From positions 26,348 through 90,347 of IMG/VR virus record IMGVR_UViG_2832576359_000003: a stretch of 64,000 nt of DNA. One strand, given 5' to 3'. The notes below the pieces were generated by a model. The model worked only from the letters and a program-made list of their open reading frames with translations, was not told the origin of the DNA and made no database searches. The position numbers and the translations under genes are program-made. Shown here piece by piece: positions 653 to 62,092 of the stretch; the stretch's first letter is position 1; every line of letters begins with the position of its first letter. Origin of the DNA: a virus (taxonomy: Duplodnaviria; Heunggongvirae; Uroviricota; Caudoviricetes).

Positions 653-714
653 CGCTCGCACTCGATGTGTCGTGATTCGAAGCTCACCCGGAAGAAGATT
701 CCAGAGGTGAGCGA

Positions 715-1863
715 GTGGCCAGCTTCCAGCTAAAAAATTTCGTTAGCATTTGTGCGAGCATGATCAACCGCATGAAGGCGACCCAAACGGTAGTTACCGA
801 TTACAACGTCGGCGCGGTCGCGCGCACGCTTATCGAAGCGCCCGCGATCGAACTCGAGGAGTTGTATCAGCAGTCGTTCAACATGGTGACCGCTGCAATT
901 CCTGTGTCGGTCTATAAGTCGTTCAATTTCACGGCGCTCGCCGCGATCGCCGCGAGTGGGCTGATTCGGACGACGATCGCTGCGCAGCAGACGGACCAGC
1001 GTATTTCGGCAGGAACGCAGTTCGCAACGACTTCGACCAGCTCCGTATATGTCGCGAGCACGGATACGACGATCGCCGCCGGCGACACGTATGCCGACGT
1101 TCAGGTGGCGTGCTCCGCGACCGGGAGCGCTGGCAATCTGGCAGCGAATCAGTCGTTCACGACCACGCCAACGATTACGGGGTTTGTGAGTGCGACGAAT
1201 CTTTCCCCGTTCACGAGCGGGCGCGATGCAGAAACCGCCGACCAAACGCTGCAGCGCTTCAACGACTACATCTCGACGCTGCCGCGCGGCACGACCGCAT
1301 CGCTGTCGTACGGCCTATCGACCGCCCAGGTCACGGACTCGAATGGCAACGCAATCGAGACGGTTGCCCTGTCGCTCGTCGATGAGCCCTACACGCGTGA
1401 CGCCACGCAGCCGATCGCGCTGGTCAACCTCTACATCTTCAACGGCGTCGGGAGCACGTCCGCGGCGCTGGTCGCGGCCGCGCAAAAGATCATCGACGGC
1501 TACACCCAGACCGACGGTACGAAGGTAGCCGGATACAAGGCCGCCGGCGTGCCCACCACCGTCTATGCGGCAACCGAACAGGACTTGAATTTCTCGGCAG
1601 AGCTTGAAATCGATACCGATCTGACCGATTGGGCTACGGCGGAAGCTGCTGCGACAACGGCGATCGACTCGTACCTGCTGGGGCTTCCATTCAACGCGAC
1701 GGCCGTCGTCGCGAAAATGGAAGCGCTGCTCATGGGCATCACCGGGGTGACCGATGTTCCCAGCATGAGCCTGACCGCGAACGTCACGGGGGGCATCGGC
1801 GTCAAGCTCATGGCCGGCACGTTGTCCTTTACGCAGGCTGCGACGACGGAGGCCACATCGTGA
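715..1863 (+). CDS. Baseplate J-like protein (Mu gp47 / P2 gpJ family)
   Basis: 382 aa. Position and overall character match the baseplate J family, between the W-like gene and the tail fibre. Confidence 0.65.
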   Translation: MASFQLKNFVSICASMINRMKATQTVVTDYNVGAVARTLIEAPAIELEELYQQSFNMVTAAIPVSVYKSFNFTALAAIAASGLIRTTIAAQQTDQRISAGTQFATTSTSSVYVASTDTTIAAGDTYADVQVACSATGSAGNLAANQSFTTTPTITGFVSATNLSPFTSGRDAETADQTLQRFNDYISTLPRGTTASLSYGLSTAQVTDSNGNAIETVALSLVDEPYTRDATQPIALVNLYIFNGVGSTSAALVAAAQKIIDGYTQTDGTKVAGYKAAGVPTTVYAATEQDLNFSAELEIDTDLTDWATAEAAATTAIDSYLLGLPFNATAVVAKMEALLMGITGVTDVPSMSLTANVTGGIGVKLMAGTLSFTQAATTEATS

Positions 1864-2966
1864 AGCTGACGAAGACGCTGCTTCGGTTCCTCCACAAGAA
1901 ATTCAAAAAGGATCCGCTTCCGTTCAACGCCTTCACGATCACCTGTGATGGCAGCGACCTCGCTTGGGTCGTGGCAGATGACGTTCTGACGCTCACGCCG
2001 ACCGGTGGACAGGCTTCGGCGCTAACCGTCGATCTGTCCGCTTATACGCTGCTCCAGCTCGTGCAGTACTTGGCCTCGGAGCCCGGGTACAACTTGAGCG
2101 CGCTGTCGAGCGACTATCGCGATCTGTCGTCGCTCGTTCTGCTCGACGGCAGCGGTGCGGTGTCAGCGGGCACCAACACGCTGACTGGCTACACCAACGT
2201 CCTCTATGCGCTGATGGAGGCGAACGCGCGCGAGCTTCAAACCGCGCACGATGCGATCGATACGCTGCCTGATCAGATGGCGACCACGACGGCGGCCGGC
2301 GACTTCCTGGATTTGCTCGGATCGTATTACAACGTGCCGCGCGCGACGGGCGAGCTCGACGCAGTGTATGGTCCGCGAATCATCGCGACTGTGTTGCGCC
2401 CGGCGAGCAACAACGTCGCGCTCGAAATGGCGATCGAGACGTACACGGGGCAATCCGCAACGGTGACCGACGTCGTCACAAGCGGTGTGACGGGCAGCGT
2501 GTACAACTCGGACCACGACTTCGACGGTTCGATCGACTACAACGCAGTATCGACGAACGTCTATGGTCTGTTCGATGTCTCATACGCCTACGATCTGATC
2601 AACGGCGGTGACCTGACCTCGTTCCAGACAACGGTTGTCTCGCTCATCAATACGCTTCGCGCCGCCGGCACGCACATGCGCTCGATCGCGCTGACGGGAT
2701 CGGTGCTCAGCGACACGCTCACGCCACCGACTGACTCGTTCCATACGCTCGGCGTCGGCGTTCCATTCGCCGACACACTGACGAGCCCAACCGAAAGCAT
2801 GTCGGTGATGCCGACGAGGCTTGCACAGCTTTCGGACACACTGACGACGCCAACCGACGCCGCTTCGATGACGGTCTCCTACAACTATGACTATAGCGGG
2901 CTTCGCTCTTACAACGGCGTGATCGAACACCTCGGCGGGTTCGCGATCACTGAAGATCTCGCATAG
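1860..2966 (+). CDS. Tail/baseplate protein at the Mu gp48 / P2 gpI position
   Basis: In-frame GTG at 1860 overlaps the stop of baseplate J. The longer ORF from 1629 would overlap the J gene and is rejected. Syntenic position between baseplate J and the tail fibre. Confidence 0.4.
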   Translation: MKLTKTLLRFLHKKFKKDPLPFNAFTITCDGSDLAWVVADDVLTLTPTGGQASALTVDLSAYTLLQLVQYLASEPGYNLSALSSDYRDLSSLVLLDGSGAVSAGTNTLTGYTNVLYALMEANARELQTAHDAIDTLPDQMATTTAAGDFLDLLGSYYNVPRATGELDAVYGPRIIATVLRPASNNVALEMAIETYTGQSATVTDVVTSGVTGSVYNSDHDFDGSIDYNAVSTNVYGLFDVSYAYDLINGGDLTSFQTTVVSLINTLRAAGTHMRSIALTGSVLSDTLTPPTDSFHTLGVGVPFADTLTSPTESMSVMPTRLAQLSDTLTTPTDAASMTVSYNYDYSGLRSYNGVIEHLGGFAITEDLA

Positions 2967-3006
2967 TCGTGACACGAGACTGACCTCCAAATGATCGGAG
3001 GTCTAA

Positions 3007-3459
3007 GTGTTTCGTTTCCGCGAAAAATCGCGTCCGCCTACCGGGCGCCTCTCCTACAAGGTGTTTCGAAAGGGCGCGCTCATCGAGGAATTCGATGATC
3101 ACAACCTGATCGTCATCGGTTCCCAAGCCACGCATGCGCACCTTCTTGGCGGCGACGTCGCAAATCGAAGCCTGACGCAGATTGGCTTCGGAACCAACGC
3201 GACGGCCGAGGTATTCGCGAATGCCGCGCTGACGGGCGCGTACATGAACAGCCTAGGCACGCCGACCTATCCGGCTACCAACGAGGTCAGCTTTCCGTTC
3301 TCGCTTGGTTCTGCCGACGTCAACGCGTTTGGGCTCTCGATCTCCGAATTCGGTTTGCTGACTGCCGGCGGCGTTCTATACGCACGCCGCACGCGCGCAT
3401 TGCCTCTCAACTTCAACAGCGACCTGTCTCTCTCCGGGACGTGGGTCATTTCGTTCTGA
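3007..3459 (+). CDS. Hypothetical tail-associated protein
   Basis: 150-aa ORF between the baseplate genes and the tail fibre. No recognisable motif. Confidence 0.35.
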   Translation: MFRFREKSRPPTGRLSYKVFRKGALIEEFDDHNLIVIGSQATHAHLLGGDVANRSLTQIGFGTNATAEVFANAALTGAYMNSLGTPTYPATNEVSFPFSLGSADVNAFGLSISEFGLLTAGGVLYARRTRALPLNFNSDLSLSGTWVISF

Positions 3460-3470
3460 GGCCGCGATAA

Positions 3471-4682
3471 ATGGCAAATCAACCGGAAGTCGCGGAATAC
3501 GATGCTGGCGTATATCAGCTCGAAGTCTCAGATCCTGTTCAAGGTGGCGTGGGAGGGCTCGCGAACGCGCCGCTGCTGAACCTCGCCAATCGGACGGCGT
3601 GGCTCTATACGCAAGTGAACAGCCTGCTCGGCGGAACGGTTATCCCGCCCACGGTTGCTCCGATCAACTCGCCGACCTTCACCGGGTCGCCGGCCGCTCC
3701 GACTCCGGCGCTCGGAGACAACTCGACGAAGCTCGCGACGACGGCCTTCGTGCAAAACACGGTCAGCGGCGAGATTTCCGTGCCGGTCGCGGGCGGCGCG
3801 AACGTCACGCTTTCGGCGGTGCAGGCTGGTAACGGCGTGCTGAATCTGACTGGAGCGCTGACAGCGAACATCGCGGTCATCGTGCCGGGGCAAGGGAAGT
3901 GGACCGTCCTCAATAAGACGACGGGCGCGTACACGCTCACTGTCAAGACGGCCGCAGGCACGGGCATCGCGGTCACGCAAGGGTACTCGCAGAATCTGTG
4001 GTCGGACGGCACCAACGTCTACACGCAGGTTACCGACTTCCCCAGCCTGGTCTTGACCGGAACGCCGACGGCGCCGACGGCGGCCGCCGGCACGAACACA
4101 ACCCAGATCGCCACCACGGCGTTTGTCACAAGCGCGGTGAGCACGGCAACGAGTGGGCTCGCACCGCTCGCTTCGCCAACCTTCACCGGCACGCCGGCCG
4201 CGCCGACTGCGACGGCTGGCACGAACACGACTCAGCTTGCGACAACGGCATTCGTGACGGCGGCGATCACGGGTGTGACGACGGGCTTCGCGCCCCTCGC
4301 GTCGCCCGCATTCACCGGTACGCCGACCGCGCCAACCGCCGTTTACGGGACGAGCAATACGCAGCTCGCGACGACGGCATTCGTGGCGAACAATTATGCG
4401 GCGCTCGCTTCGTTCACGGCTTCAATCGCGTTGCCTGGCTATCAGAAGCTGCCGAGCGGTCTCATCATGCAGTGGCTCTACTTCACCGCATCGGCATCGT
4501 TGACCTTGCAGCTGGCGACGCTACCTATCGCCTTTCCAACCGCCATCTTGGCGATCATCGCGAGTTCGGTCTCTACGAACAGCCCGGTTTATAGCCAGAA
4601 GTACGGGACCTCACTCACGCAGATTTACGTCGCGAGCCAGAACGCGTCGGGTGCTGGCTACGTTCTTGTTATCGGATACTAA
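3471..4682 (+). CDS. Tail fibre protein with tandem collar-like repeats
   Basis: At least 4 tandem copies of the motif SPTFTGTPAAPTA-GTNTTQLATTAFV, typical of P2 gpH-like fibres. Followed by a chaperone-like gene. Confidence 0.75.
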   Translation: MANQPEVAEYDAGVYQLEVSDPVQGGVGGLANAPLLNLANRTAWLYTQVNSLLGGTVIPPTVAPINSPTFTGSPAAPTPALGDNSTKLATTAFVQNTVSGEISVPVAGGANVTLSAVQAGNGVLNLTGALTANIAVIVPGQGKWTVLNKTTGAYTLTVKTAAGTGIAVTQGYSQNLWSDGTNVYTQVTDFPSLVLTGTPTAPTAAAGTNTTQIATTAFVTSAVSTATSGLAPLASPTFTGTPAAPTATAGTNTTQLATTAFVTAAITGVTTGFAPLASPAFTGTPTAPTAVYGTSNTQLATTAFVANNYAALASFTASIALPGYQKLPSGLIMQWLYFTASASLTLQLATLPIAFPTAILAIIASSVSTNSPVYSQKYGTSLTQIYVASQNASGAGYVLVIGY

Positions 4683-4685
4683 GCA

Positions 4686-5246
4686 ATGGGACAGAAATAC
4701 GCCGCCTACGATTCGACCGGCGCCATCGTGGGGTTCTACGACAGCGAAGACAGTCCGGTTCCGACCGGTACGAATGTGATCGAAATTACGGATGCGCAGT
4801 GGTCGGCTGCGATCCAAAACACGACCGGCTTCAAGGTTGTCAGCGGTGTGCTCGTCTCGGTGACCCCGACCGCGGCCCAGCTGCTCGCCACGGCGCAAAC
4901 CACGCAGAAGCTGGTCATCGACGCCGCCTATGCGGATGCGATCCAGCAGAACGTTTCGTTCACCACGGCGGCCGGCGTAACGGAGACATTCGAGGCCGAC
5001 AGCGACAGCCAGACGCTCCTCGTATCGGCAACTCAGGGCTATACGATCGCCGGTGCGACGCCGGCTGGGTTCTATTGGGTCGCGGCCGACAATACGCAGG
5101 TACCGTTCACGCTCGCCGATCTGACGGGGCTCTACCAAGCGACGCTCGCGCAAGGTTGGGAAGCGTTTCAAAAACGCCAGACCCTGAAGTCGCAGATCGA
5201 TGCTGCGACGACTGTCGCCACGGTGCAAGCAATCACCTGGTCATGA
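4686..5246 (+). CDS. Tail fibre assembly chaperone (gpG-like)
   Basis: 186-aa ORF immediately after the tail fibre, start 4 nt after the fibre stop. Call is positional. Confidence 0.45.
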   Translation: MGQKYAAYDSTGAIVGFYDSEDSPVPTGTNVIEITDAQWSAAIQNTTGFKVVSGVLVSVTPTAAQLLATAQTTQKLVIDAAYADAIQQNVSFTTAAGVTETFEADSDSQTLLVSATQGYTIAGATPAGFYWVAADNTQVPFTLADLTGLYQATLAQGWEAFQKRQTLKSQIDAATTVATVQAITWS

Positions 5247-5680
5247 AATTCGCCTTCTACAAAGGCAATTCATCGCTACTCGACAAGCTCATCAGCTGGT
5301 GGATGCGCGGCCCGTACTCGCACGTCGAGGTTATTCTCGGCGAGGGGCCGCGCGGAACGTACACCATCGCGTCGTCTGTCCCCGGTATCGGCGTGCGAAT
5401 CGCGACGCATCAGACGTTGCCGCTCGACGAGTGGGACATCATCGACGGTCCCGGCAATATCGATGCCGCGCGCGCGTGGTTCGAGAAGCGAGTCGGCGCG
5501 CCGTATGACTACGTCGGGCTCCTCGGCTTCGTGCTGCGCCCCGCGACCGGCGACGCGCGCGGGAAATACTGGTGCAGCGAAGCAGCGCTTGAGGCGATCG
5601 GCTTCCCGGGTGCGTGGCGTTACGACCCGAACGCGATGTTCGACGTGATCACGTACAGCGCGCGAGCAGCTCGGGCGTAA
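5243..5680 (+). CDS. Permuted papain-like (NlpC/P60 / YiiX-like) putative hydrolase
   Basis: ATGA overlap with the upstream gene. His in YSHVEV comes before Cys in KYWCSEAA, a His-then-Cys order consistent with permuted NlpC/P60 amidases. Confidence 0.4.
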   Translation: MKFAFYKGNSSLLDKLISWWMRGPYSHVEVILGEGPRGTYTIASSVPGIGVRIATHQTLPLDEWDIIDGPGNIDAARAWFEKRVGAPYDYVGLLGFVLRPATGDARGKYWCSEAALEAIGFPGAWRYDPNAMFDVITYSARAARA

Positions 5681-5699
5681 GGAAAATGCAGCAGGAACC

Positions 5700-5745
5700 G
5701 GGGCCGCCTTCGCGCGGCCTTTTCGTTTTTGTCGTGACGACAGAC
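5700..5745 (+). terminator. Rho-independent terminator after the tail-fibre operon
   Basis: GC hairpin GGCCGCcttcgcGCGGCC followed by TTTTCGTTTTT. Confidence 0.5.
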
Positions 5746-5796
5746 TGATCGCGTGGCCTCACAACGGGCATCGATCAATCATCGCAAACATCAAAA

Positions 5797-6114
5797 ATGA
5801 ACATGGATTTGCTGCCAGTTATTCAGGCCATCTGGGCGGTTCTCGTGTTGGTGCTTATGGCCTTCTCGACCGTCTTGTGGTTTCTGTTCATGTCCGTACG
5901 CGCTGACGCACGCAAGGCTAACGATGGGCTCGCCGAGCACCGGGTGTATTGCGCCGAAAACTACGTCACGTCTAAGGAACTCACTGAGTCGATCGGCGCG
6001 CTGAATCAGACAATCGATCGCCTCATTGCGGCGGTGAATACCAACATGGAGGAGACGCGGCGCGCGCTCTCCGAAATTCACCGCCGCGTCGACACAGTGG
6101 CCGCCGGCAAATGA
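5797..6114 (+). CDS. Small membrane protein, putative holin/lysis regulator
   Basis: N-terminal transmembrane segment (LLPVIQAIWAVLVLVLMAF) plus a coiled-coil tail. Stop overlaps the start of the endolysin. Confidence 0.4.
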   Translation: MNMDLLPVIQAIWAVLVLVLMAFSTVLWFLFMSVRADARKANDGLAEHRVYCAENYVTSKELTESIGALNQTIDRLIAAVNTNMEETRRALSEIHRRVDTVAAGK

Positions 6115-6680
6115 ACGACGACCTCGTACTCACCGCGGACGACCTCTCGCTCACGAAAAGCGCTGAGGCCTGCTATCTCACCGCGTACCCGGACCCCGCC
6201 TCGGCGCTCGCGCAGAAGCTTGTCGCGCTCGGCCTGTGGGCACAGACGCTTCGCGGCGTCGCGATCCCCGCGTCAGTGCTCGCGCTCGGGCTGATCGGCG
6301 CGCCGTGGACGATCGGATATGGGCACACCGGACCCGAAGTGCATCAGGGCCTCGTGTGGACTCAGCCGCAAGCGGATGCCGCGTTGCTGGCCGACATGAG
6401 CGCCGTGCAGGCAAATGTGCGCGCGCACGTCACGGTCGCGCTGACGAAGCCGGAGTTCGTCGCGCTTTGCGACTTTGCATACAACGTCGGGACCGGGAAT
6501 TTCGACACATCAACGCTGTTGAAGCTGCTCGACGCGGGCGACTTCGAGGGCGCGGCCGCGCAATTCGCGCGATGGAATCTGGCCGGCGGCGTCGTTCTCG
6601 CTGGCCTTGTGAAGCGGCGCGGGGCGGAAGCTGCGCTGTTCCTGTCAGGACTGGTCCAAGCGACGACGGCGACGACCTAA
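6111..6680 (+). CDS. Endolysin, GH24 phage lysozyme (lambda R / T4 lysozyme family)
   Basis: SAEACYLTAYPD(P) catalytic Glu/Asp/Thr region and GYGHTG motif. Sits in the lysis cassette. Confidence 0.8.
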   Translation: MNDDLVLTADDLSLTKSAEACYLTAYPDPASALAQKLVALGLWAQTLRGVAIPASVLALGLIGAPWTIGYGHTGPEVHQGLVWTQPQADAALLADMSAVQANVRAHVTVALTKPEFVALCDFAYNVGTGNFDTSTLLKLLDAGDFEGAAAQFARWNLAGGVVLAGLVKRRGAEAALFLSGLVQATTATT

Positions 6681-10049: not shown

Positions 10050-10913
10050 TTAAGCGCTGATCGCGCGCGCTGCTTTTCCGACGTGAACCTTGTCGTCGTC
10101 ATCGATCTTCCACGAAGCAAGAAACCCGACCGATTGAAGTTCGGTCAAAGCCTTTTTGAGCGTCACGCGAAAATGCGACAGCGCCTTCGCCTGCGACCCG
10201 CATTGCTGGTGGATGAATTTCACCGACACCGCGAACGGAGCTGCGTGGGTGTTGTAGTAGCTATGTAGCCACTTCGACAGTTCTGACCTGAGCCGCAGCC
10301 GCTGCTCGCGCGCGACTCGGCTGTAATCATCGGATGCAAACAGTCGCGCGATCTCGGGTTCGATGTAGCAAATCCACCGAGTCTGCCCATCCGAGTCCGT
10401 CTCGGTGCCGTCCTTCCAGATGAACTTTCGAATCAACGAACCCTGAAAGCCTTTTCGGTTTCCCTCGAACGCCACCTTGAGCGAGCTTTCCTGCAGCCGC
10501 TCAAGGATCTTCACGAGGCGCTCGTACCCTTTGCTCGACGTGTCCCATCCGAGCGTCTTCAGCATCGCGTATCCGGTGAATTCGACGCGCTCCGACAAAA
10601 TCGTGTCTCGGGCCAGATGCAGGATCTCAAGAAAGACGTCGGCGTCGTCCTGCCGCAGCTCCTCGCCTTTGTGCGTGATCGTCGTCGTTCCCGAGCTAGC
10701 GATTTGCTTTCCCGGGAAGTATCGATCGCGCGGCGCCGCGGCGCGGTTCACGTTGAAGAGCGCCGATCGCGCGAGCGAATTCGGCATGCCCCGGACGTTG
10801 GACGGCCAGAGCGGGATCTGCGTAGGCTCGTCGGGCTTGGCGACAGCAGCCTTAGCGCTTCTGGCGAGAGCCGCTGCACCGAGTTGCCTAGTTTTTTCGA
10901 CGAGATCATTCAT
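10050..10913 (-). CDS. trfA: TrfA-type plasmid replication initiator
   Basis: LPLWP, RGMPNSLARSALF and winged-helix blocks resemble IncP TrfA. Start placed at MNDLVEK. An iteron-containing oriV lies immediately upstream. Confidence 0.6.
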   Translation of the reverse strand: MNDLVEKTRQLGAAALARSAKAAVAKPDEPTQIPLWPSNVRGMPNSLARSALFNVNRAAAPRDRYFPGKQIASSGTTTITHKGEELRQDDADVFLEILHLARDTILSERVEFTGYAMLKTLGWDTSSKGYERLVKILERLQESSLKVAFEGNRKGFQGSLIRKFIWKDGTETDSDGQTRWICYIEPEIARLFASDDYSRVAREQRLRLRSELSKWLHSYYNTHAAPFAVSVKFIHQQCGSQAKALSHFRVTLKKALTELQSVGFLASWKIDDDDKVHVGKAARAISA

Positions 10914-10949
10914 GGCGGCCACACTAGCGGTAGTCTGCACGATTCGCAA

Positions 10950-11400
10950 CCCACTACCTTCGGGTTTCTAGCGATGGTCGTTGCTTTTCGGCCAGAGGCT
11001 CGGGTTTCTGGCGATGATCTGAAAAACGGCGTTTGTGCACAACTCTCGGGTGTCTAACGACGGTCATCCAGTGGATATCTGTCGGGTTTCTGGCGACGTG
11101 TTCGGGTGCCTAGCGACGACACCTTCGGGTGTCTAGCGATAGAGGCTCGGGTTTCTAGCGATCGCATGGACATGAAATTTCCTTTTTATTCAATGAATTA
11201 CATGGTGTTTTGGAGAGACCTAATCAGTCTTTAATCTTCTTTAATCCACACCAGACCATCGCTAGAAACCCGATAGTTCGCGATTTCCGGCCCCCGATTT
11301 CGTACCGTCGCTAGAAACCCGATAGTGGAAAATCGTCGCTAGAAACCCGTGGCTACACGTTATGCCCCATCGCTAGAAACCCGTGCCCCGGTGAGCACTC
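10950..11400. repeat. oriV-like origin: 7 direct plus 4 inverted iterons flanking an AT-rich segment
   Basis: Core CGGGTTTCTAGCGA (variants CGGGTGTCTAACGA, CGGGTTTCTGGCGA) at about 10962, 10999, 11045, 11079, 11101, 11123, 11144, the last four on a 22-bp period. AT-rich island 11165-11250. Inverse-oriented TCGCTAGAAACCCG at about 11251, 11307, 11335, 11369. Confidence 0.8.
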
Positions 11401-11559
11401 ACTGTCGGTGAACTCGCGCCCGCCTATGGACAGGGGCGCTGCCCACCGCCTGTCGGCCGTGGACAGCCGCTTCGCGGTCCCTCCCCTGCCCACAGGCTCC
11501 CCGCGGCCCGTGCCCTTCGGGCCTGACGCGCCCTGACGGGCTTGCCTTGCGTTGGGATA

Positions 11560-11600
11560 AACCATAAAAAAACCGGGCTGCATTGCTGCTCGCCCGGTGG
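11560..11600 (-). terminator. Rho-independent terminator of the parAG operon
   Basis: Minus-strand hairpin (CCGGGCgagcagcaatgcaGCCCGG) followed by a T-run, seen on plus as aaaaaaaCCGGGCtgc...GCCCGG. Confidence 0.55.
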
Positions 11601-11664
11601 TCCAGAGTGCTGTGTTACAAGGCTCGGGTTCTGTTTGCCGCCCTGCCCTCCCCGTGTACTTGCT

Positions 11665-12084
11665 TTACTCGAGTCCGTATTTCTTTTTCAACGCGGCCAG
11701 CTTGTCTCGAGTGCCGGCGATGATCACCTCGGACATGGGAATGTCCGTGGCCTTCCAGAAATCCCGCAGTTCCTCGTGCAGGTCGACGGGGAGACGAGTT
11801 TGAAACGGCGTGGTGGCCACCGATCGGCGGCGAGGGATGGGCAACGGATCGTCCTGCGGCTCGTTTTGCGGCTCCACAGGGGGCTTGGGCGCCCTTTCCC
11901 GCGGCTTGGGTGCAGCGACGGCCTCCGAAGCCATAGTGGCGGCCACCTGGTCTTGTGTGTGCGCGGCTGCCTCGGCAGCGTCGATTGCTGTCAGGGAGGA
12001 CGGTGTTTCTGCCTCGTCGCTGTTGCCGCCCTTGATAAATTCCATCGGGCTGCGAAAGCCCTTCCCTCGTGCGGCTGCATTCAT
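11665..12084 (-). CDS. ParG-like ribbon-helix-helix centromere-binding protein (type Ib partition)
   Basis: Small protein downstream of parA. C-terminal TRLPVDLHEELRDFWKATDIPMSEVIIAGTRDKL looks like an RHH fold; N-terminus is disordered. Confidence 0.5.
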   Translation of the reverse strand: MNAAARGKGFRSPMEFIKGGNSDEAETPSSLTAIDAAEAAAHTQDQVAATMASEAVAAPKPRERAPKPPVEPQNEPQDDPLPIPRRRSVATTPFQTRLPVDLHEELRDFWKATDIPMSEVIIAGTRDKLAALKKKYGLE

Positions 12085-12728
12085 TGTGCGATCTCCAGAG
12101 CAAGGGCGCGCATCTCGGCTACGGCCTTGGGGTCAGTGCTGCCGTTGTATTCGGTCACGGCGCGGCCGTCGCGCGCCGTCAGGCGGAATATCTTGCGCTC
12201 GCTGATGAACCCGTCCAGCAGCCGGTATTGGGTCAGGTCTTGAAGGGCTTCGCGCATTTCCGCCACGTCGGTCGATCGGGCGTTTGTCGGAGCGCGGTTG
12301 ATCACCACGAGTGCGCGCAAAGTCTTGTTCCAGATCCGCGCGTTTTTGACGTGGTTGTCCATCTTCGCGAACGTGAAGATGTCGAACTGGCTGGTTTGAG
12401 CAGGTGTGACCACCACATCGGCGGCCACCATCGAGGCGCGCATTTCCTCCGCGTCGTGCCCAGGCGTATCAACCACGATATCGTCGTACTTTGCTTTGAG
12501 GGTCGTCAGCTCTTCTGCAATCGTGGCGCCATAGATGCTGACACACGTGATTTCAGGGGTGATTTTCTCCGTGCGACGTATCTTGTGCCATAGCGATGCC
12601 GATCCCTGCCTATCTGCATCGACGAGTAGCACGTCACGTCCCTCGCCCGCCAGCATTGCGGCATACCCGACGGCCAGCGTGGTTTTACCACTGCCCCCTT
12701 TCTCTCCGCCAAACAAGACAACAGCCAT
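12081..12728 (-). CDS. parA: ParA partition ATPase (small type Ib)
   Basis: Deviant Walker A (GGEKGGSGKTT) and DADRQGS motif. About 215 aa. Start placed at MAVVLFGG. Confidence 0.8.
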   Translation of the reverse strand: MAVVLFGGEKGGSGKTTLAVGYAAMLAGEGRDVLLVDADRQGSASLWHKIRRTEKITPEITCVSIYGATIAEELTTLKAKYDDIVVDTPGHDAEEMRASMVAADVVVTPAQTSQFDIFTFAKMDNHVKNARIWNKTLRALVVINRAPTNARSTDVAEMREALQDLTQYRLLDGFISERKIFRLTARDGRAVTEYNGSTDPKAVAEMRALALEIAQ

Positions 12729-12779
12729 GACAAATACCCCGCGCGCTTGATGTGAATACGCGCAGGGTAGTTGCAATGT

Positions 12780-18655: not shown

Positions 18656-19420
18656 TTAGAAACCGCCGATGCCTTGGAATCCCTTTACGCGGCCTACAAT
18701 GACCAGCGCCTGCGACTGGCGGTAGTCGAGCGTCATCTCGGGGACCTTGCCGCTGTCCGTGGTGATGCGAATGCCCTTGTTGATGTAGTGATGCAGCCGG
18801 CGCACGCATGCTTTGTCGTCGATCACGACGAGAAACACGCCGCCATCGTCTGGAATTTCCGTATCTGCGCGATCCGCAACAATGCTGTCGTTTTGGCACA
18901 AACGCGGCCCCATTGCGCTGTCGCGCAACTTGAACGAAACAAGGTTTTCAGGATCGACACCGGTCTCGCGGATCAAGGACCCTTGAAACAGAATCTTCTC
19001 TCGGGCGCTGACTGAAACGGTCACGCCCCCCCGGGCTGCATCTGGTCTTACTTCTAGCGTTCCAATCGCCACGTTATCGTCCCACTTTAAGTCGGTAATT
19101 TCTTCTTTGTCCGACGCGGGCGATGTAGTTGTGTCCGTTGCGTCGAGTGCAGAATTATGCACCGCAACGGACTTGCTTTGAAGTGAATTTGTACTTGTTG
19201 GAAGAAAAAAATCTGCGACACGCACCTGCAATGCCGTCGCGAGAGCCTCCAACTTGGGCTGCGGCACGCCCTGTTTGCCCGTCTCAATCTTCGACAGGCT
19301 GGAGTTGCTGATTCCCGTAAGTGCCTGTACTTCCATCAATGTCAGGCCGCGTTCGAGTCGGTAGCGGCGGATCTGTGCGCCGATTTCAGCTAAGGACACG
19401 TGTGGGTACTCCCTGATCAT
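18656..19420 (-). CDS. CI-like repressor (XRE HTH + S24 LexA-like peptidase domain)
   Basis: N-terminal HTH (LTLMEVQALTGISNSSLSKIETGK). C-terminal S24 motifs (SAMGPRL Ser ... GRVKG Lys). Divergent from the cro-like gene. Confidence 0.8.
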   Translation of the reverse strand: MIREYPHVSLAEIGAQIRRYRLERGLTLMEVQALTGISNSSLSKIETGKQGVPQPKLEALATALQVRVADFFLPTSTNSLQSKSVAVHNSALDATDTTTSPASDKEEITDLKWDDNVAIGTLEVRPDAARGGVTVSVSAREKILFQGSLIRETGVDPENLVSFKLRDSAMGPRLCQNDSIVADRADTEIPDDGGVFLVVIDDKACVRRLHHYINKGIRITTDSGKVPEMTLDYRQSQALVIVGRVKGFQGIGGF

Positions 19421-19550: not shown

Positions 19551-19823
19551 ATGACCGCAGCCAATCTCAGCCCGCTTCGCAAAGCTCGCGAGGCTCGGGA
19601 CCTCAGCCTCAAGGAGGTTGCGGCCGCCGTAGGCACGTTCACGGGGAATCTGTCGCGCATCGAACGCGGTTTGCACAACGCGTCACGCGACCTCGCGGCC
19701 GCGCTCGCCAAGTTTTTTGCGCCGGACATTACCGAACTTCATATCTTTTATCCTGAGCGATACGCAGATTTCTGCCCTTCGAAATCGTCTGCTTATACGA
19801 AGAAAGCAGAGATTCTGTCGTAA
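19551..19823 (+). CDS. Cro-like XRE-family HTH regulator
   Basis: HTH block LSLKEVAAAVGTFTGNLSRIERG. 90 aa, divergent from cI. Confidence 0.6.
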   Translation: MTAANLSPLRKAREARDLSLKEVAAAVGTFTGNLSRIERGLHNASRDLAAALAKFFAPDITELHIFYPERYADFCPSKSSAYTKKAEILS

Positions 19824-20059
19824 TCGTTCTTTAGGGTTGCACGATACGCATTTTTGCTCGTGATGGCAAAGAGTTCGTTCGGTTAGGCAGATGTCTTTTG
19901 CTTTTTGGTCGTTCTAAGCACCAAAAAATGACCAAAATCGGAAAAAAAGAGTGCGTTTCGCCCGGTTTCGAACAGACGTATTTCTTCGGTGCTGACTGCC
20001 TTGTCGAGCCGATCGGTCTGATGATTAACCTGTTGATTACAAAAAACAAAAAGGCCCCG

Positions 20060-20095
20060 GTGCGCGAACGCCGGGGCCTTCTTTTTGCAAACCAC
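20060..20095. terminator. Bidirectional rho-independent terminator (tR1-like)
   Basis: AAAAAGGCCCCGGtgcgcgaacgCCGGGGCCTTCTTTTT, with A/T runs on both sides of the stem. Confidence 0.6.
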
Positions 20096-20216: not shown

Positions 20217-21089
20217 ATGACGACGCACCATTTCGAGGTCGACGACGCCGTTCGATATGGCGTGAACGCCGCTGTCATTCTTCAGAATCTTCGATTCTGG
20301 ATCTTGCACAACAAGGCGAACGGGAAGCACCAGCACCAGGGCCGGACCTGGACGTTCAACAGTGCTCGCGCGTTCTCGCTGCTGTTCCCATACCTAAGTG
20401 CCGATCAGGTGAAACGCATCCTTCGCAAGCTCGTCGACGAAGGTGTTTTGCTCGCGCGCACGCTCGCTGAGGACAGTTGGGATCGAGTCAACTGGTATGC
20501 GTTCGATGATGAGTCGAAGCACCTTGCACAGCCCGAAACCCCCGTCGCAGCGCATGGTGCAAATTCGCCCAATGCATCGGGCGGAATCGCACCATCCATG
20601 GGGCGAAAGCGCACCGTCGATGGTGCGAAATCGCCCAATCACAAGACAGATGTAAACACAGATAAAAAACGCAGATCTAAATCTATATCGGCTGCTGCGC
20701 AGCCTGACGATGATTTCGAGCAGGCCTGGGCGCTTTATCCGAGTCGGGGCGGTGGAAATTCGAAGGCCGACGCGCTGAAGGCTTGGAAGGCGCGCATTGC
20801 TGCTGGCGACACCGCTGCGCAAATGCTCGAGGGCGTGCAGCGCTACGCGGTGTTCTGCGACAAAACAGGGAAGCTCGGCACCGAGTACGTGAAGCAGGCT
20901 AAGACGTTCTTTGGACCCTCTCGGCACTTTGCTGATGCGTGGCCTGTGCCGGTCGCCTCGGCGCCGGCCGCGCGCGACGACACGCGCTTTGCTTCTTCGC
21001 GCTCGATCGTAGGTTCGGCATCCCCTCATTCCGTAGGAGCACGCGATGACGGCAAGACCATCGACGCTGACGCTCGCTTCGTCAACTGA
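20217..21089 (+). CDS. Lambda O-like replication initiator (winged-helix N-terminus)
   Basis: N-terminal winged-HTH-like domain. Iteron repeats plus an AT-rich stretch sit inside the coding region at 20545-20700, as in lambda ori. Followed by an overlapping P-like gene. Confidence 0.45.
   Translation: MTTHHFEVDDAVRYGVNAAVILQNLRFWILHNKANGKHQHQGRTWTFNSARAFSLLFPYLSADQVKRILRKLVDEGVLLARTLAEDSWDRVNWYAFDDESKHLAQPETPVAAHGANSPNASGGIAPSMGRKRTVDGAKSPNHKTDVNTDKKRRSKSISAAAQPDDDFEQAWALYPSRGGGNSKADALKAWKARIAAGDTAAQMLEGVQRYAVFCDKTGKLGTEYVKQAKTFFGPSRHFADAWPVPVASAPAARDDTRFASSRSIVGSASPHSVGARDDGKTIDADARFVN
20545..20700 (+). repeat. Lambda-type origin inside the O-like gene: 4 iterons + AT-rich region
   Basis: GGTGCAAATTCGCCC, GGCGGAATCGCACC, GGGCGAAAGCGCACC, GGTGCGAAATCGCCC at about 20-bp spacing, then acagatgtaaacacagataaaaaacgcagatctaaatctatat. 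Confidence 0.6.
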
Positions 21090-21807
21090 GCGCGCGCCGA
21101 GCGGCGCCGATACGGGCATCGATCGGGTGTTCCTGCATCTGCATGGAATCTGGGGGCGACGCTTCGGCGATCAATTTCTCTCGGGCGACGTGGTCGACGG
21201 CGTCGACACGGGCATCGCAAGCGCGAAGCTCGTTTGGGCAGAGCGGATCCGTGCGAACGGATTGACCATCGGACAGATTCGCCGCGGCATGGCGGCGGTC
21301 GAGAAGCTGAAGCATCCCCCGTCGTGGGCGGACTTCTTGCGCGTTTGCCTGCCGCCGGCGATCGACGCCGATCGCGCGCTCTCTGAAGCCGTTGTGCAGA
21401 TGGAGCGGCGCAGGCGAGGGGAGGACCGGTGGACCGACGCATGCGTGTTTTGGGCCGCCGTGCGCGTGGGCGAATACGACATACTTTCAAAGTCGCGCGA
21501 ATGGTTGCGCCCCGTCTTCGCCGCCGCGCTCGAGGCCGTGCTCGCGCAGGGAATCGTGCCGCCCGTTCCAGAGCGCGCGCCGGCGCTCGTTGCGCCCGGC
21601 ACCGCGGTGACGGACACAGAGTCGGCGAAGGCTCGCCTCGCGTCGCTCGCGCGGACGCACCTTCAGCAGACGTCGGTTCCGGGGCTCGCGTGGGCTCAGC
21701 GCGCGCTCGAGCGCAAAGCGCGGGGCGAGCCGGTCGCTGCGAAACTCGTGCTCGACGCCGAGCGTGCGCTCGCCGCTCGCGCATCCGCGTCGAGCGGTGA
21801 GGCCTGA
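21046..21807 (+). CDS. Lambda P-like replication protein (helicase loader)
   Basis: LTIGQIRRGMAAVEKLKHPPSWADFLRVC parallels lambda P (EQVNAGMRVARRQNRPFLPSPGQFVAWC). Overlaps the end of the O-like gene as in lambda. Confidence 0.5.
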   Translation: MTARPSTLTLASSTERAPSGADTGIDRVFLHLHGIWGRRFGDQFLSGDVVDGVDTGIASAKLVWAERIRANGLTIGQIRRGMAAVEKLKHPPSWADFLRVCLPPAIDADRALSEAVVQMERRRRGEDRWTDACVFWAAVRVGEYDILSKSREWLRPVFAAALEAVLAQGIVPPVPERAPALVAPGTAVTDTESAKARLASLARTHLQQTSVPGLAWAQRALERKARGEPVAAKLVLDAERALAARASASSGEA

Positions 21808-21810
21808 AGC

Positions 21811-22317
21811 ATGACGAATAGCGTGCGCATGACACCCGAGCAATACGCCGAGCATTTGCGGAAGCGTGAGGCGCCACGTCGCGCACAAGGTCCCGCGCCC
21901 GCTGCGGTCGCGCCTGCGCTCTCCGCTGCCGATGCAAAGGTCTTGCGTGCGCACGCAGCGAACCAGGCATTCCAGGCGCTGGGCCGCTTGCCGAAAGGCA
22001 CGATGAACAAGACCGAAGGGCAGTACGCGGATTTCCTCGAGGAACAGAAGCGCATCGGCAAAGTCCTGTTCTGGAAATTCCACCCGTTCAACGTGCGCCT
22101 CGCAAACAACACGTTTTACGAGGTCGATTGGCTCGTGCTTCCTTTCGACATGGTTCTCGAGATCCATGAAACGAAGGGCGGCCGCACGACGGACAAAGGC
22201 CAATTGAAATTAAAGCTGTGCGGTGAAGTACTGCCCGTATTCCGTATGAAAAAGGTCATCAAGCAGACAAAGGCTGATGGCGGTGGTTGGCTTATCGAGG
22301 AATATTCCGCGACATGA
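21811..22317 (+). CDS. DUF1064 / VRR-NUC-like PD-(D/E)xK nuclease-fold protein
   Basis: YEVDWLVL ... LEIHETKGG fits a D...E.K nuclease-fold motif. In the nin-like region after the P-like gene. Confidence 0.4.
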   Translation: MTNSVRMTPEQYAEHLRKREAPRRAQGPAPAAVAPALSAADAKVLRAHAANQAFQALGRLPKGTMNKTEGQYADFLEEQKRIGKVLFWKFHPFNVRLANNTFYEVDWLVLPFDMVLEIHETKGGRTTDKGQLKLKLCGEVLPVFRMKKVIKQTKADGGGWLIEEYSAT

Positions 22318-25028: not shown

Positions 25029-25103
25029 CGCGGGCTTGGCCGATCGGTTAGGCGCCAGCTTCCCAAGCTGGTAATAGGCGAGTTCGATTCTCGCAGCCCG
25101 CTC
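25029..25103 (+). tRNA. tRNA-Gly (anticodon CCC), slightly noncanonical D-stem and 6-nt variable loop
   Basis: Acceptor GCGGGCT/AGCCCGC, anticodon arm CCAGC-TTCCCAA-GCTGG, T-arm GCGAG-TTCGATT-CTCGC, 3' TCCA. Confidence 0.6.
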
Positions 25104-25258
25104 CAGTATTAGTGCTTCCCGCTCGGTTGGATCGAGTGCTTGGCCCCCGGTCGGGACTCAGGGGTGCCCCTCAAGCGCCGAGGAATCGAAGAGGCCATGA
25201 CCGGCCGCTAGCAGCGCCTCGAAATAATCGTCCGCTGGCCCCGTAGGGCCAACGATTT

Positions 25259-25335
25259 GGCAGGGTGGGGAAGTTGGTCATCCCGATGGGCTCATAACCC
25301 GTAGATCGCTGGTTCGAGTCCAGCCCCTGCAACCA
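25259..25335 (+). tRNA. tRNA-Met-like (anticodon CAT) with G1-A72 mismatch
   Basis: Anticodon arm ATGGG-CTCATAA-CCCGT, T-arm GCTGG-TTCGAGT-CCAGC, encoded ACCA end. First acceptor pair mismatched. Confidence 0.5.
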
Positions 25336-25523
25336 AACTGATGGGTGGCGCAACCTCCCTGAACCGGTGACCTAAAAGTTAGGGAACTGCGCGGAGCAAC
25401 GACGGTTGCGAGTGTTCAGAAATACGGGTGTAACAGTGGTTGCTCGGGGCCGGTGACGTACACCGGCGCTGTACCCGATATGCGCATGCGATGTGTGTGC
25501 ATATCAGGTGCAGTAAGCGGTAT

Positions 25524-25600
25524 GTCGCGTTGGACTTCTGGTTGAGGTCAGCATCCTTTCAAGGTGCGTAGGTCGGGTTCGAATCCCACACGCGACACCA
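25524..25600 (+). tRNA. tRNA-like gene (possible anticodon TTC), imperfect T-stem
   Basis: 7-bp acceptor GTCGCGT/ACGCGAC with encoded ACCA. Hairpin GCATC-CTTTCAA-GGTGC. GGGTTCGAATCCC T-loop with a mismatched stem. Confidence 0.35.
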
Positions 25601-25604
25601 GTTT

Positions 25605-25683
25605 CGCTGGGTAGCTCAAGCGGTAGAGCGTTCTCTCTCCAGAGAGGGGAAGGTTGGTGGTTCAAGTCCATCCCTGGCGGCCA
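25605..25683 (+). tRNA. tRNA-like gene, anticodon arm irregular
   Basis: Canonical D-arm TAGCTCAAGCGGTAGAGC and T-arm GGTGG-TTCAAGT-CCATC. Acceptor has two G-U pairs. There are 3-4 extra nt around the anticodon arm, so the anticodon is ambiguous. Confidence 0.35.
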
Positions 25684-25915
25684 GCGGTTCCTTGTTGTGC
25701 TTCGGTGCGGTGCCAGCCATAACATCGGCTGGGTGGAGGGTCGGGGCCGCTACCCCGACCCCTCATTTACCCATCGAAGAATGTGCATGAATTGCAACTA
25801 ACGCCCAAGCATGCTCGTCTCTCGGCGAGCGCTTCGCGGTGGTTGCGCAATGGTTGGGTGGCCGGGGCGATATCCCTTTGTGTCCGCGCGCAAACCGCGC
25901 CTCGGCTGCTCAAAC

Positions 25916-26001
25916 CCTCTGGTCTGGATTTGCTCGCTGACGTTCTCTAAGGACCCGCTCGTTCGCTGGAGCGTCGGAGATAGAGTCCAGACCAGAGGGT
26001 G
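25916..26001. ncRNA. Structured element: 14-bp perfect inverted repeat stem-loop
   Basis: CCCTCTGGTCTGGA at 25916 and TCCAGACCAGAGGG at 25988 flank a 58-nt loop that has internal pairing potential. Lies between tRNA-like genes. Confidence 0.3.
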
Positions 26002-26019
26002 AGGGGCCGCACCCTAGCA

Positions 26020-26119
26020 GCAGCCGTAGCTCAGTCAGGTAGAGCACCCCGTCGAGGGGGAGACTGGAATTCCAGGCACGCGGCGCCGTGTGGCACGGGT
26101 TCAAATCCCGTCGGCTGCT
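26020..26119 (+). tRNA. Long tRNA-like element (about 100 nt) with extended 11-bp terminal stem and insertion
   Basis: D-arm GTAGCTCAGTCAGGTAGAGC and T-arm ACGGG-TTCAAAT-CCCGT. Terminal stem AGCAGCAGCCG/CGGCTGCTGCT. About 45-nt insert containing the palindrome CTGGAATTCCAG. Class II or intron-like, anticodon unassigned. Confidence 0.3.
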
Positions 26120-36154: not shown

Positions 36155-38125
36155 TTAAGCGGCCGCGGCAGCACGCAACTCGTGCGCGAAATTAGCGCGG
36201 ATGATTGCGGCGGCGACCGGCGGGCAGACGCTGTTGCCGATCATGCGGACCTGAGCCGACTTGGAAAGGCGCTTGCCGTTGTGCTCGGGGTCGAGCACGT
36301 ACGAATCGGGGAAGCCCTGGGCACGCGCGAGCTCGCGCGGCGTGAGCATGCGCATGCCGATATCGACGATGGCGTAGTCCTCGCCGTGGATCGTCACGAG
36401 ACCGAGCCGGTCTTTCGTCGGGATCGTGTGCATCGGGTCGCGCAGATCCTGATGCTGGCCGCCTTCGCTGTAGTACTTGATCAGGAAGGCGCGCACCTCG
36501 GCGTGATGCAGTCCACCGGCGCTTACCGTGTGGAGCGGCTCGGCGACCGGTTGCGCGCCGCCGTTGTTGCGCAGCTTCACGAGGTGCGACACGGCGATCG
36601 CCGAATCGGCCTTCGCGGTGATTGTGGCAGCGGGCTCGCTCGCGTCGCGCGGCCGAGACTGACCAGCGCGGCCGCCACAGCCGACGATCTGAGCGGTGAC
36701 GAGCGCGTGGTGATCCTGCGTCGTGACCGTGCTCATCGGGTATGCGAGGTCCGCGCCGGGCGTTTCATTACCGCCGTAGTGCTTCGCGAGGAAGGCGGAC
36801 ACGAGGGCGTGCTTCGCGCCGCCCGCGACGACGGTGCCGAGTGGCTTGTCGATACCCGGCGCGCGCGGCGCCTGCCCGGCGCGCTCGCCGTATCCCGTCT
36901 GAATCAGCGTTGCGGCGACGATCTGCTGCTGGCCGCCGCTCGCAGTGATCGTGCTCAGCGGCGCTTTTGCGGATCGACCGGCCTTAACGCCCACGCGTTC
37001 CTTGTTGTGCTGCGCGAGGAATGCAGTAACGAGCGCTTGCTCGCTGCGGTTCGCGCCCGTGACGGTCGCGAGCGGTGCGTCGGCGCGCGCGCCGCGGTCT
37101 GAGCCCTGGTGCGTGACGTGCATCAAGGTCGGCGCGACCATCGCAAGGCTTCCACCGCGCGGATACGCGGTGATCGTGCGCAATGGTTCGCTCCCGCTGT
37201 GGACCGTGTCGCGGCCGTTGTAGTGCGCAATCGGAACGATGAAAGGGTCGGCGCTGTTCACGACGAACTTCATGATGCCGCGCGCGATACGCCGCAGCGT
37301 CGCATCCTTGAGCGGGCGATCGCGCTCGAAGATCGAGGGGCACGGGATCGACCAGTCGATGCATTCGGCCGCGGTGCGGTACGGCGCGAGCGCGCCGCGC
37401 GCGACGGCGTCCGAGTTCGGCGCGCCGTGCGTGGGCGCGGGCCAAACGATCGGAAGCCCATCGCGGCGCGCGAACAGATAGAGGCGCTTGCGAATCGTCG
37501 GCGTGCCGAAGTCGCACGCGCGCAGCACGCGCCATTCGACCTTGTATCCGAGCCCCGCGTAGAGTCGCTCCATCGGGAAGTCGGCGCCGAGCGTCTCGAA
37601 GATCTCGGGCACGTCCGGGTGCTCAGGCGACAGGCCGGACGAGAGCGCATCGACGAACGCGCGGAACGTGCGGCCTTTCTCGGCCTTGATCGGTTGGCCG
37701 TGCTCGTCGACCGGGCCCCAATCCTGGAACTCCTCGACGTTTTCGAGCGCGAGGCAGCGCGGCACCTGGAAGGTCCCCCACTTCAGGGCGATCCAGGCCA
37801 GCCCGCGGATCTTCTGGTCGCGCGGCTTGCCGCCCTTCGCCTTCGAGTGATGCTTGCAATCGGGGCTGAACCAGGCAAGCCCGATCGGCATCTGGTTCGT
37901 GATGAAGCCCGGGTGCACCGCAAAGACGTCTTCGCGATAGTGCCGCGTCGTCGGGTGGTTGGCCGCGTGCATCGCGAGCGCTTCGCCGTCGTGGTTGATG
38001 GCGATATCGACCGGGCGCCCGAAGGCCATCTCAATGCCCGTGCTCGCGCCGCCGCCGCCGGCGAAGTTATCCACGATGAGTTCGTGCCCCAAGTCGAGCT
38101 CGAAACTGATCTCGTCGCGCTTCAT
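36155..38125 (-). CDS. DNA cytosine-5 methyltransferase with 8 tandem ~35-aa repeats in the variable region
   Basis: Motif I DNFAGGGG, PC-like SPDCKHHS, ENV(EEF) motif, C-terminal MIGNSVCPPVAAAI. Repeat unit PLxTITAxG..HALVTAFLAKHYG occurs 8 times between roughly aa 300 and 580. Confidence 0.7.
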   Translation of the reverse strand: MKRDEISFELDLGHELIVDNFAGGGGASTGIEMAFGRPVDIAINHDGEALAMHAANHPTTRHYREDVFAVHPGFITNQMPIGLAWFSPDCKHHSKAKGGKPRDQKIRGLAWIALKWGTFQVPRCLALENVEEFQDWGPVDEHGQPIKAEKGRTFRAFVDALSSGLSPEHPDVPEIFETLGADFPMERLYAGLGYKVEWRVLRACDFGTPTIRKRLYLFARRDGLPIVWPAPTHGAPNSDAVARGALAPYRTAAECIDWSIPCPSIFERDRPLKDATLRRIARGIMKFVVNSADPFIVPIAHYNGRDTVHSGSEPLRTITAYPRGGSLAMVAPTLMHVTHQGSDRGARADAPLATVTGANRSEQALVTAFLAQHNKERVGVKAGRSAKAPLSTITASGGQQQIVAATLIQTGYGERAGQAPRAPGIDKPLGTVVAGGAKHALVSAFLAKHYGGNETPGADLAYPMSTVTTQDHHALVTAQIVGCGGRAGQSRPRDASEPAATITAKADSAIAVSHLVKLRNNGGAQPVAEPLHTVSAGGLHHAEVRAFLIKYYSEGGQHQDLRDPMHTIPTKDRLGLVTIHGEDYAIVDIGMRMLTPRELARAQGFPDSYVLDPEHNGKRLSKSAQVRMIGNSVCPPVAAAIIRANFAHELRAAAAA

Positions 38126-62072: not shown

Positions 62073-62092
62073 TGTTGTGTCTCTGGTTTGAG

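Follow-up and report, generated by a model that had tools for sequence, protein, structure and literature searches.

The subject of this report is a 64,000-nucleotide stretch of viral DNA (referred to below as the window; positions 26,348 to 90,347 of IMG/VR record IMGVR_UViG_2832576359_000003), which is a tailed temperate phage of Pararobbsia silviterrae. We consider it likely that this phage possesses a lambdoid-type replication module, composed of an initiator gene with an origin inside it and an overlapping gene for a helicase loader, alongside a TrfA plasmid replicon, and that the two divide lytic replication and plasmid maintenance between them as the replicons of phage P1 do. The parts of this reading differ in strength. 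The identity of the module, i.e. initiator, in-gene origin and loader of the lambda P family, is in our view highly probable. The division of labour, in which the initiator and P-like genes (together O/P) would serve lytic growth and TrfA would serve plasmid maintenance, draws on gene position and on the analogy with P1, and we favour it with modest confidence. The features of the module are as follows (aa, amino acids):

20217-21089, plus strand: replication initiator of 290 aa, lambda O-like in layout (phrog_270 match)
20554-20573, 20576-20595, 20598-20617 and 20620-20639, no strand assigned: four 20-bp imperfect-palindrome iterons, putative binding sites of the initiator N-domain
20640-20695, no strand assigned: A-rich stretch of 35% GC, proposed unwinding element from its composition and its position adjoining the iterons
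21046-21807, plus strand: divergent lambda P family protein of 253 aa (family profile), proposed loader of host DnaB

The two open reading frames (ORFs), 20217-21089 and 21046-21807, are intact and overlap by 44 nt, and both start codons are backed by alignments of homologues. An earlier note on this DNA had claimed four 15-bp near-palindromic iterons within the first gene. All four 15-mers are present, at 20556, 20579, 20601 and 20622, and they are better described as 20-bp palindromes that recur with a period of exactly 22 bp (about two helical turns), leaving spacers of 2 bp. Their half-site consensus is ATGGKGCG, each iteron is self-complementary at 12-14 of its 20 positions, and the mean pairwise identity among the four, the better orientation being taken, is 16.0/20. 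When every position of the window was scored for four 20-mers at a 22-bp period, position 20554 ranked first with z = 11.9 (mean 6.43, standard deviation 0.80), the best score outside the array being 10.5. Matches to the degenerate core GKGCRNNNNCGCMC number four in the 80-bp iteron block and one in the rest of the 64 kb. Iterons 2 and 3 are inverted relative to iterons 1 and 4, and each of them is internally dyad-symmetric; the iterons therefore act at the level of the DNA and are not peptide repeats.

The iterons are followed by an AT-rich stretch, as had also been claimed: the GC content is 35% at 20630-20689, with an A-skew of +0.44 (excess of A on the top strand), and that of the gene overall is about 60%. 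A 33-mer in this stretch, ACAGATGTAAACACAGATAAAAAACGCAGATCT (also written ACAGATGTAAACNCAGATAAAAAACGCAGATCT), located at 20646-20678 after the iterons, is unique in the window; CAGAT occurs in it three times, at intervals of about 12-14 nt, and GATCT once. Relatives have retained the 33-mer even where the protein sequence around it has diverged, and its role may perhaps go beyond that of a passive unwinding element. The likening of the whole layout to the lambda origin holds up well, both in the presence of iterons and an AT-rich region inside the gene and in their placement, the iterons starting at 38.6% of the length of the initiator gene and ori-lambda at 38.7% of that of O. The iterons encode residues 113-141 of the initiator and the A-rich stretch encodes residues 142-160, which belong to the linker between the two domains of the protein; the origin-like DNA therefore sits in the part of the gene that is least constrained at the protein level, as in lambda O. 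Across the window, DnaA-box-like sites are no more numerous than expected by chance, and the cumulative GC skew, which mainly tracks gene orientation, was not used.

The earlier note had made its claim depend on conservation of the repeats in relatives, and conserved they are. Over the N-domain and the linker, the initiator is 56-62% identical to Paraburkholderia proteins (P0003-P0010) whose C-termini are unrelated to its own. In all three of the Paraburkholderia DNAs examined (loci L004, L005 and L006), the linker DNA contains four 20-bp palindromes with a 22-bp period. The half-sites of L004 and L005 are of the ATTSGGCG type, close to those of the window, and those of L006 are of the ATTCCGCA type in 4/4 copies, unlike those of the window. 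The identity of the L006 iterons is 14.7/20 within the locus versus 11.6-13.1 against the other loci, which, judged from the sequences, is what would be expected of binding sites changing in step with the domain that recognises them. In L006 the 33-mer has hardly changed, and L004 and L005 retain most of it, despite the differing C-domains downstream, and in a more distant relative (L007, 38% protein identity) palindromes are followed by three CAGATA motifs in A-rich DNA. Furthermore, in-gene repeats of their own are present in initiators in which the C-domain is joined to other N-domains (L010, L009, L003 and L026). Thus, L010 has four copies of ACCCCTTCGGAAAA at 20-23 bp, L009 has four or five repeats at 15 bp, and L026 has three or four 19-mers followed by AT-rich repeats; in phage DC1 three in-gene repeats occur at 23 bp.

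It may be added that the Paraburkholderia cassettes of N-domain and four iterons (L004:4001-5083, L005:4001-5254 and L006:4001-5080), which are fused to unrelated C-domains, lie within small clusters together with integrase, AlpA-like and antirepressor genes. These clusters may be satellites or islands having an origin specificity in common with such phages.

The initiator protein matches phrog_270 (replication initiation protein) with E = 8.6e-42 over residues 16-257, i.e. over both of its domains, and a Pfam search with it returned no match. We found 126 homologues, and an AlphaFold model was built on 97 of them. In this model the N-domain (aa 1-105) is confident and has the helix-helix-strand-helix-helix-wing pattern of a winged helix, the linker (aa 108-163) is of low confidence (predicted local distance difference test score, pLDDT, <50) and predicted to be disordered, and a helical C-domain (aa 165-250) is again confident. 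The C-domain is common to proteins with HTH_36, DUF1376 or Phage_rep_O N-domains. The gene had been called O-like, a term that stands as far as the architecture and the probable function are concerned, and that does not stand for homology to lambda O, which was found for neither domain. Matches to 'O-like' PHROGs are weak (phrog_678, 1.5e-5; phrog_345, 3e-3). The proposed profile comparison with the N- and C-terminal domains of lambda O gave no similarity: PF04492 was not matched, hhalign of a 48-sequence alignment of the N-domain reached a probability of 0.2%, and hhalign of a 90-sequence alignment of the C-domain reached 2.5%, with an aligned lambda segment that lies outside the lambda C-domain. 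BLASTP against lambda O returned nothing meaningful either. A true homologue of lambda O was thus ruled out by the Pfam, BLASTP and hhalign results, and the initiator is an analogue of lambda O in architecture and probably in function, not a member of its family.

The case of the second gene is different. In lambda, P binds DnaB and hands it over to the O protein that occupies the origin. An overlapping P-like gene had been claimed downstream of the initiator gene, with a block resembling lambda P that corresponds to residues 74-101 of the P-like protein. Searches with the single protein returned little: phmmer against PDB sequences found nothing, a word-indexed homologue search found only the protein itself, and BLASTP against lambda P gave merely E = 0.044, in a different segment. 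An exhaustive HMMER search with the same protein, on the other hand, found 447 cluster representatives at E-values up to 1e-3. PF06992 (Phage_lambda_P) is matched by 28 of the 59 family members aligned in A2, the best with E = 1.9e-11. When the A2 profile was compared with lambda P by hhalign, the probability was 96.5% (E = 9e-10, 168 columns), residues 22-204 of the query being aligned with residues 37-225 of lambda P. The A2 profile also matches PDB entry 8v9t_V, a 233-aa chain described as 'Helicase loader' (E = 3.7e-12), whose aligned residues are those of lambda P. Moreover, in a Smith-Waterman alignment the block W..G.T..Q...GM....P.PS...F...C falls on lambda P residues 69-110, with a score reached by 3/500 shuffles. 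Taken at the level of profiles, the HMMER family, the PF06992 matches, the hhalign result and the 8v9t_V match make the P-like protein a divergent member of the lambda P family; the proposed profile search against lambda P was thus positive by way of the family profile. For annotation, this means that P-family loaders in Betaproteobacteria are mostly missed by Pfam. By tblastn, no homologue of the P-like protein was found in 72,556 plasmid records.

A weak match of the A2 profile to 1no1, the 'replisome organizer' G39P of phage SPP1, was also seen (E = 0.12, not significant). It falls on the motif W..L..T..E...G..A...PPT, the same one that aligns to lambda P, and may hint at a deeper kinship between loader families.

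To place this initiator-loader pair among others, the genes around P-family members and around initiators with the same C-domain can be compared. In 80 of 80 genomic P-family loci, mostly from Burkholderiales, the P-family gene is immediately preceded by an ORF of the same strand, and 8 of the 10 upstream ORFs tested with Pfam have HTH_36, DUF1376, replisome-organiser or other winged-helix/phage-initiator domains. The C-domain of the window's initiator is located upstream of the P-family gene in L025, L026, L047 and, weakly, L039 (4/80 loci), its N-domain in none of the 80, and TrfA within 10 kb of none of them. An apparent link between the pooled upstream C-termini and the window's C-domain (hhalign 93%) was rejected, as it fell to 1% once the four loci with that same domain had been removed.

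The C-domain is shared by initiators of Bcep22-like Burkholderia phages (DC1 gp19, BcepIL02 gp20) and by some Stx-phage 'O' proteins. The shared part, YPxRAGGNxKAxALKAW...GTEYVKQAxTFFGP, has 72-85% DNA identity over 65-240 nt, and some phage records label proteins with this C-domain 'replication protein O'. These initiators differ from that of the window in their N-domains and their iterons, although DC1 does have in-gene repeats, and the gene that comes after them encodes a DnaC-like (IstB-type) loader instead of a P-family protein, in some cases accompanied by a DnaB-like helicase. Across relatives, DnaC-like loaders follow this C-domain oftener than P-family loaders do. In L007 (4228-4989) and L009 (4377-5150), the C-domain initiators are followed by a third class of gene, encoding proteins of 253-257 aa that have no Pfam match and do not match the P-family profile; these may be uncharacterised helicase loaders. 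A constant pairing of this C-domain with P-family loaders was thus ruled out by the DnaC-like or 253-257-aa proteins found elsewhere and by its presence at no more than 4/80 P loci. The C-domain occurs with three loader classes, and the P family with at least three classes of initiator C-domain. These differing pairings lead us to conclude that the origin-binding domain with its iterons, the recruiting domain and the loader are shuffled freely. Since there is no lambda O homology and the parts are exchanged in this way, the contact between initiator and loader cannot be transferred from lambda, and the exchange raises the question of which initiator surface a P-type loader recognises.

The second replicon of the phage comprises the following features:

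10050-10949, minus strand: TrfA-family plasmid replication initiator (Pfam PF07042)
10960-11388, no strand assigned: oriV-like iteron field of 7 direct and 4 inverted iterons, directly upstream of the TrfA gene
12081-12776, minus strand: ParA-like partition ATPase (phrog_164, E = 1.8e-43)

The TrfA/oriV module of the earlier note was recovered at 10050-11388. TrfA matches PF07042 with E = 1.4e-30 and 106.8 bits (cut-off 22), and its residues 42-294 are 68% identical to the annotated TrfA of many Burkholderia plasmids. Since alignment with the plasmid proteins begins only at residue 42 of the 299-aa ORF, the true start may be internal. The iteron field, with 11 iterons in all, consists of seven direct copies of TCGGGTTTCTAGCGA at 10960-11161, an AT-rich centre at 11162-11250 with one DnaA-box-like site at 11242-11250, and four inverted copies at 11255-11388. 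Beyond it lie a small ORF and the ParA-like gene, which makes a full trfA/iteron/parA replicon at 10050-12776, located 9 kb from the initiator/P pair and inside the phage gene map. Plasmid pR53p of Burkholderia glumae is collinear with the window module, its order being likewise parA-parB, two opposed iteron arrays and trfA. The iterons of the two, about 17 bp long, are related (TCGGGTTTCTAGCGATG in the window vs TCGTTCTTCCAGCGATG in pR53p). Other TrfA/oriV replicons that can be likened to that of the window are present on the B. multivorans ATCC 17616 plasmid NC_010802 and on the IncP plasmid RK2. Unlike the TrfA/oriV replicons of the Burkholderia plasmids, that of the window is embedded in a tailed-phage genome. 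We found no TrfA homologue by tblastn in 50,697 phage records, so that this plasmid type was not seen in the deposited phage genomes searched, and nothing relevant was found in the literature on TrfA in phage-plasmids or on the host species.

Phage genes flank both replicons, those at 29-6680 on one side (baseplate, tail-fibre and endolysin genes) and those for single-stranded DNA-binding protein (SSB), RecT, exonuclease, methylases and terminase, at 13.4-59.8 kb, on the other. Phage structural, lysis and packaging genes are therefore present together with TrfA and ParA on one contiguous element. The minus strand at 12.9-18.5 kb encodes HNH, SSB, SbcC-like ATPase, RecT and PD-(D/E)XK nuclease proteins, and the large terminase gene, at 57150-59768, is followed by nicotinamide adenine dinucleotide (NAD)-salvage genes. 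A RusA/Holliday-junction-resolvase-like gene at 21811-22317 follows the P-like gene, and none of the window ORFs tested was recognised as a phage helicase. In the collections, megablast with the surrounding 24 kb detected neither a related phage nor a related plasmid. The O/P pair lies next to what looks like an immunity region:

18656-19420, minus strand: CI-like repressor (Pfam HTH_31, E = 2.8e-13, and Peptidase_S24, E = 1.2e-6; phrog_4)
19551-19823, plus strand: cro-like HTH gene (Pfam HTH_31 and HTH_3)
20051-20080, plus strand: intrinsic-terminator-like hairpin, a 12-bp stem with 9 GC pairs followed by a T-run

The CI-like repressor has a LexA-type S24 self-cleavage domain and its gene is divergent from the cro-like gene. 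The latter is the first rightward gene, and the initiator/P pair begins about 400 bp downstream of it. The hairpin lies in the spacer between the cro-like and initiator genes, which has 43-50% GC. An A-run is present to its left, so that it could function in both directions.

With these elements, replication might proceed as follows. Dimers of the winged-helix N-domain would bind the four iterons and destabilise the A-rich stretch, the initiator C-domain would recruit the P-like protein, and the latter would, like lambda P, deliver host DnaB to the origin once this has been opened. During lysogeny, the repressor would keep O/P off, a silence that we infer because the pair is located downstream of cro and opposite an S24-type repressor, and TrfA, oriV and ParA would maintain the element as a low-copy plasmid. 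After induction, the O/P origin would drive lytic replication, which would follow the logic of oriR/RepA and oriL/RepL of P1 with unrelated parts.

The likeness to O, P and ori of lambda extends to several features. In both systems the initiator has two domains and the origin lies in the DNA that codes for the linker between them; an A-rich region comes after four iterons that are dyad-symmetric, about 20 bp long and placed 20-24 bp apart; the loader gene begins before the initiator gene has ended, and the loader of the window is homologous to lambda P at the profile level; and the module is located just downstream of cro, under a CI-type repressor. On the other hand, the iteron sequence of the window is unrelated to that of lambda, its initiator domains have no detectable homology to lambda O, and its P-like protein has diverged so far that Pfam does not match it directly. 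The window also has no cII-like gene, has a terminator-like hairpin where lambda has tR1, and belongs to a phage whose host is a betaproteobacterium. In P1, oriR and RepA together with ParAB serve the plasmid prophage, and oriL, located inside repL and repressed by C1, serves lytic growth, a functional split that has been shown experimentally. The window resembles P1 in that one temperate phage has an iteron-controlled plasmid replicon with a partition system and, separate from it, a replicon that has its origin within the gene for its own initiator and a location that would allow control by the immunity repressor. It differs from P1 in that no parts are homologous, TrfA replacing RepA and a winged-helix initiator with a P-type loader replacing RepL, and in that the functional split is deduced for the window element. 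RepA of the staphylococcal plasmid pSK41 (RepA_N family) can also be named among the closest known systems.

Several observations weigh against this interpretation and have to be set beside the evidence for it. The P-like protein alone matches no Pfam family at E-values up to 1, PF06992 included, and its single-sequence AlphaFold model is unusable (mean pLDDT 42). None of the three methods applied detected a relationship between lambda O and either domain of the initiator. In 69 of the 75 other P-family loci the initiator has a third kind of C-domain, unrelated to that of the window or that of lambda O, and in DC1, L008 and L010 it is DnaC-like loaders that come after the C-domain of the window (L008 has a DnaB-like helicase in addition). 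The hairpin upstream of O/P is a strong terminator-like one, and the interval from it to the initiator gene yielded no sigma-70-like promoter; expression of O/P may therefore need read-through or antitermination. Finally, an integrase or host flanks may lie in the other ~26 kb of the 90,347-bp record.

The alternatives to be weighed concern either the pairing of the two replicons or the nature of the palindromes. It is conceivable that one replicon is functional and the other is a mosaic leftover, be it that a TrfA plasmid took up a prophage by insertion or recombination or that O/P is an inactive relic. Phage genomes are mosaics, and the phage and plasmid collections contain no near relative of the element for comparison. 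Moreover, some putative phage-plasmids are plasmid-integrated prophages or defective elements (Pfeifer et al. 2021, PMC7969092). We regard a leftover as unlikely, however, given that trfA is full length and accompanied by 11 well-kept iterons and parA, that O and P are intact and have four well-kept iterons, and that the TrfA block lies between the lysis and the recombination/immunity genes and not at an edge of the phage map. Slightly less probable again is an ordinary integrating prophage, in which O/P would be the sole phage replicon for lytic growth and TrfA and ParA would be transient or serve another purpose. Some elements do alternate between integrated and episomal states (PMC7969092), and an integrase gene could lie in the 26 kb outside the window. 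Against this, no Pfam or PHROG match to an integrase was obtained among the ORFs tested in the 64-kb window of the 90,347-bp record, no clear host genes are present at the window ends (baseplate genes at the start; terminase and NAD-salvage genes at the end), and a replicon with partition genes marks plasmid prophages.

As to the palindromes, they might be autoregulatory operators, or a by-product of linker coding, instead of an origin. Palindrome-binding winged-helix proteins are usually transcription factors, and the linker peptide is partly conserved in relatives. Yet the inversion of sites 2 and 3 together with the dyad symmetry excludes peptide repeats; the 22-bp phasing, the conserved A-rich stretch, the location in an initiator gene and the loader gene downstream match known in-gene origins of phages and plasmids; and relatives with unrelated N-domains carry 3-5 in-gene repeats followed by AT-rich DNA. 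An explanation without an origin is thus very improbable, and the least credible of those considered here. We therefore retain the interpretation of a lambdoid-type module with an in-gene origin next to a TrfA replicon.

Neither kind of system is new in itself: origins located inside a gene and served by an initiator-loader pair are known, and so are phage-plasmids in which plasmid and lytic replication have replicons of their own (PMC7969092 for the phage-plasmids). What was not found in the collections searched, as far as sequence comparison goes, is the combination of a TrfA replicon in a phage with a P-type loader behind a non-O initiator. The element thus offers a clear and experimentally tractable case of a temperate phage outside the enterobacteria that has two replicons of different ancestry. 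A more speculative idea, which we put forward tentatively and think rather doubtful at present, is that the element stands at the head of a lineage of Burkholderiales phage-plasmids not yet described, with maintenance by a broad-host-range-type TrfA/oriV/ParA replicon and a repressor-controlled, lambda P-dependent lytic origin inside a gene, and that the small integrase-bearing islands of L004-L006 might be satellites that, by way of a shared origin specificity, hijack such phages or are mobilised by them.

Some further features of the window are of interest in their own right. A phage tRNA cluster is located at 25030-26119, in which ARAGORN called Gly-CCC, Met-CAT, Glu-TTC and Trp-CCA genes; Rfam gave an extra 100-nt tRNA match at 26020-26119, not called by ARAGORN, and missed the Glu gene. 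Three DNA methyltransferases, one C5-cytosine and two N6/N4 enzymes, are encoded at 36155-38125 (minus strand), 42028-43278 (plus strand) and 44954-46363 (plus strand), and the gene at 50622-51752 encodes a protein with Phage_gp49_66 and Tad2-like (anti-Thoeris) domains. Lastly, at 60339-62908 on the minus strand a NAPRTase-family gene is located beside a ribose-phosphate-pyrophosphokinase-like gene, a pair that may constitute an NAD-salvage counter-defence.

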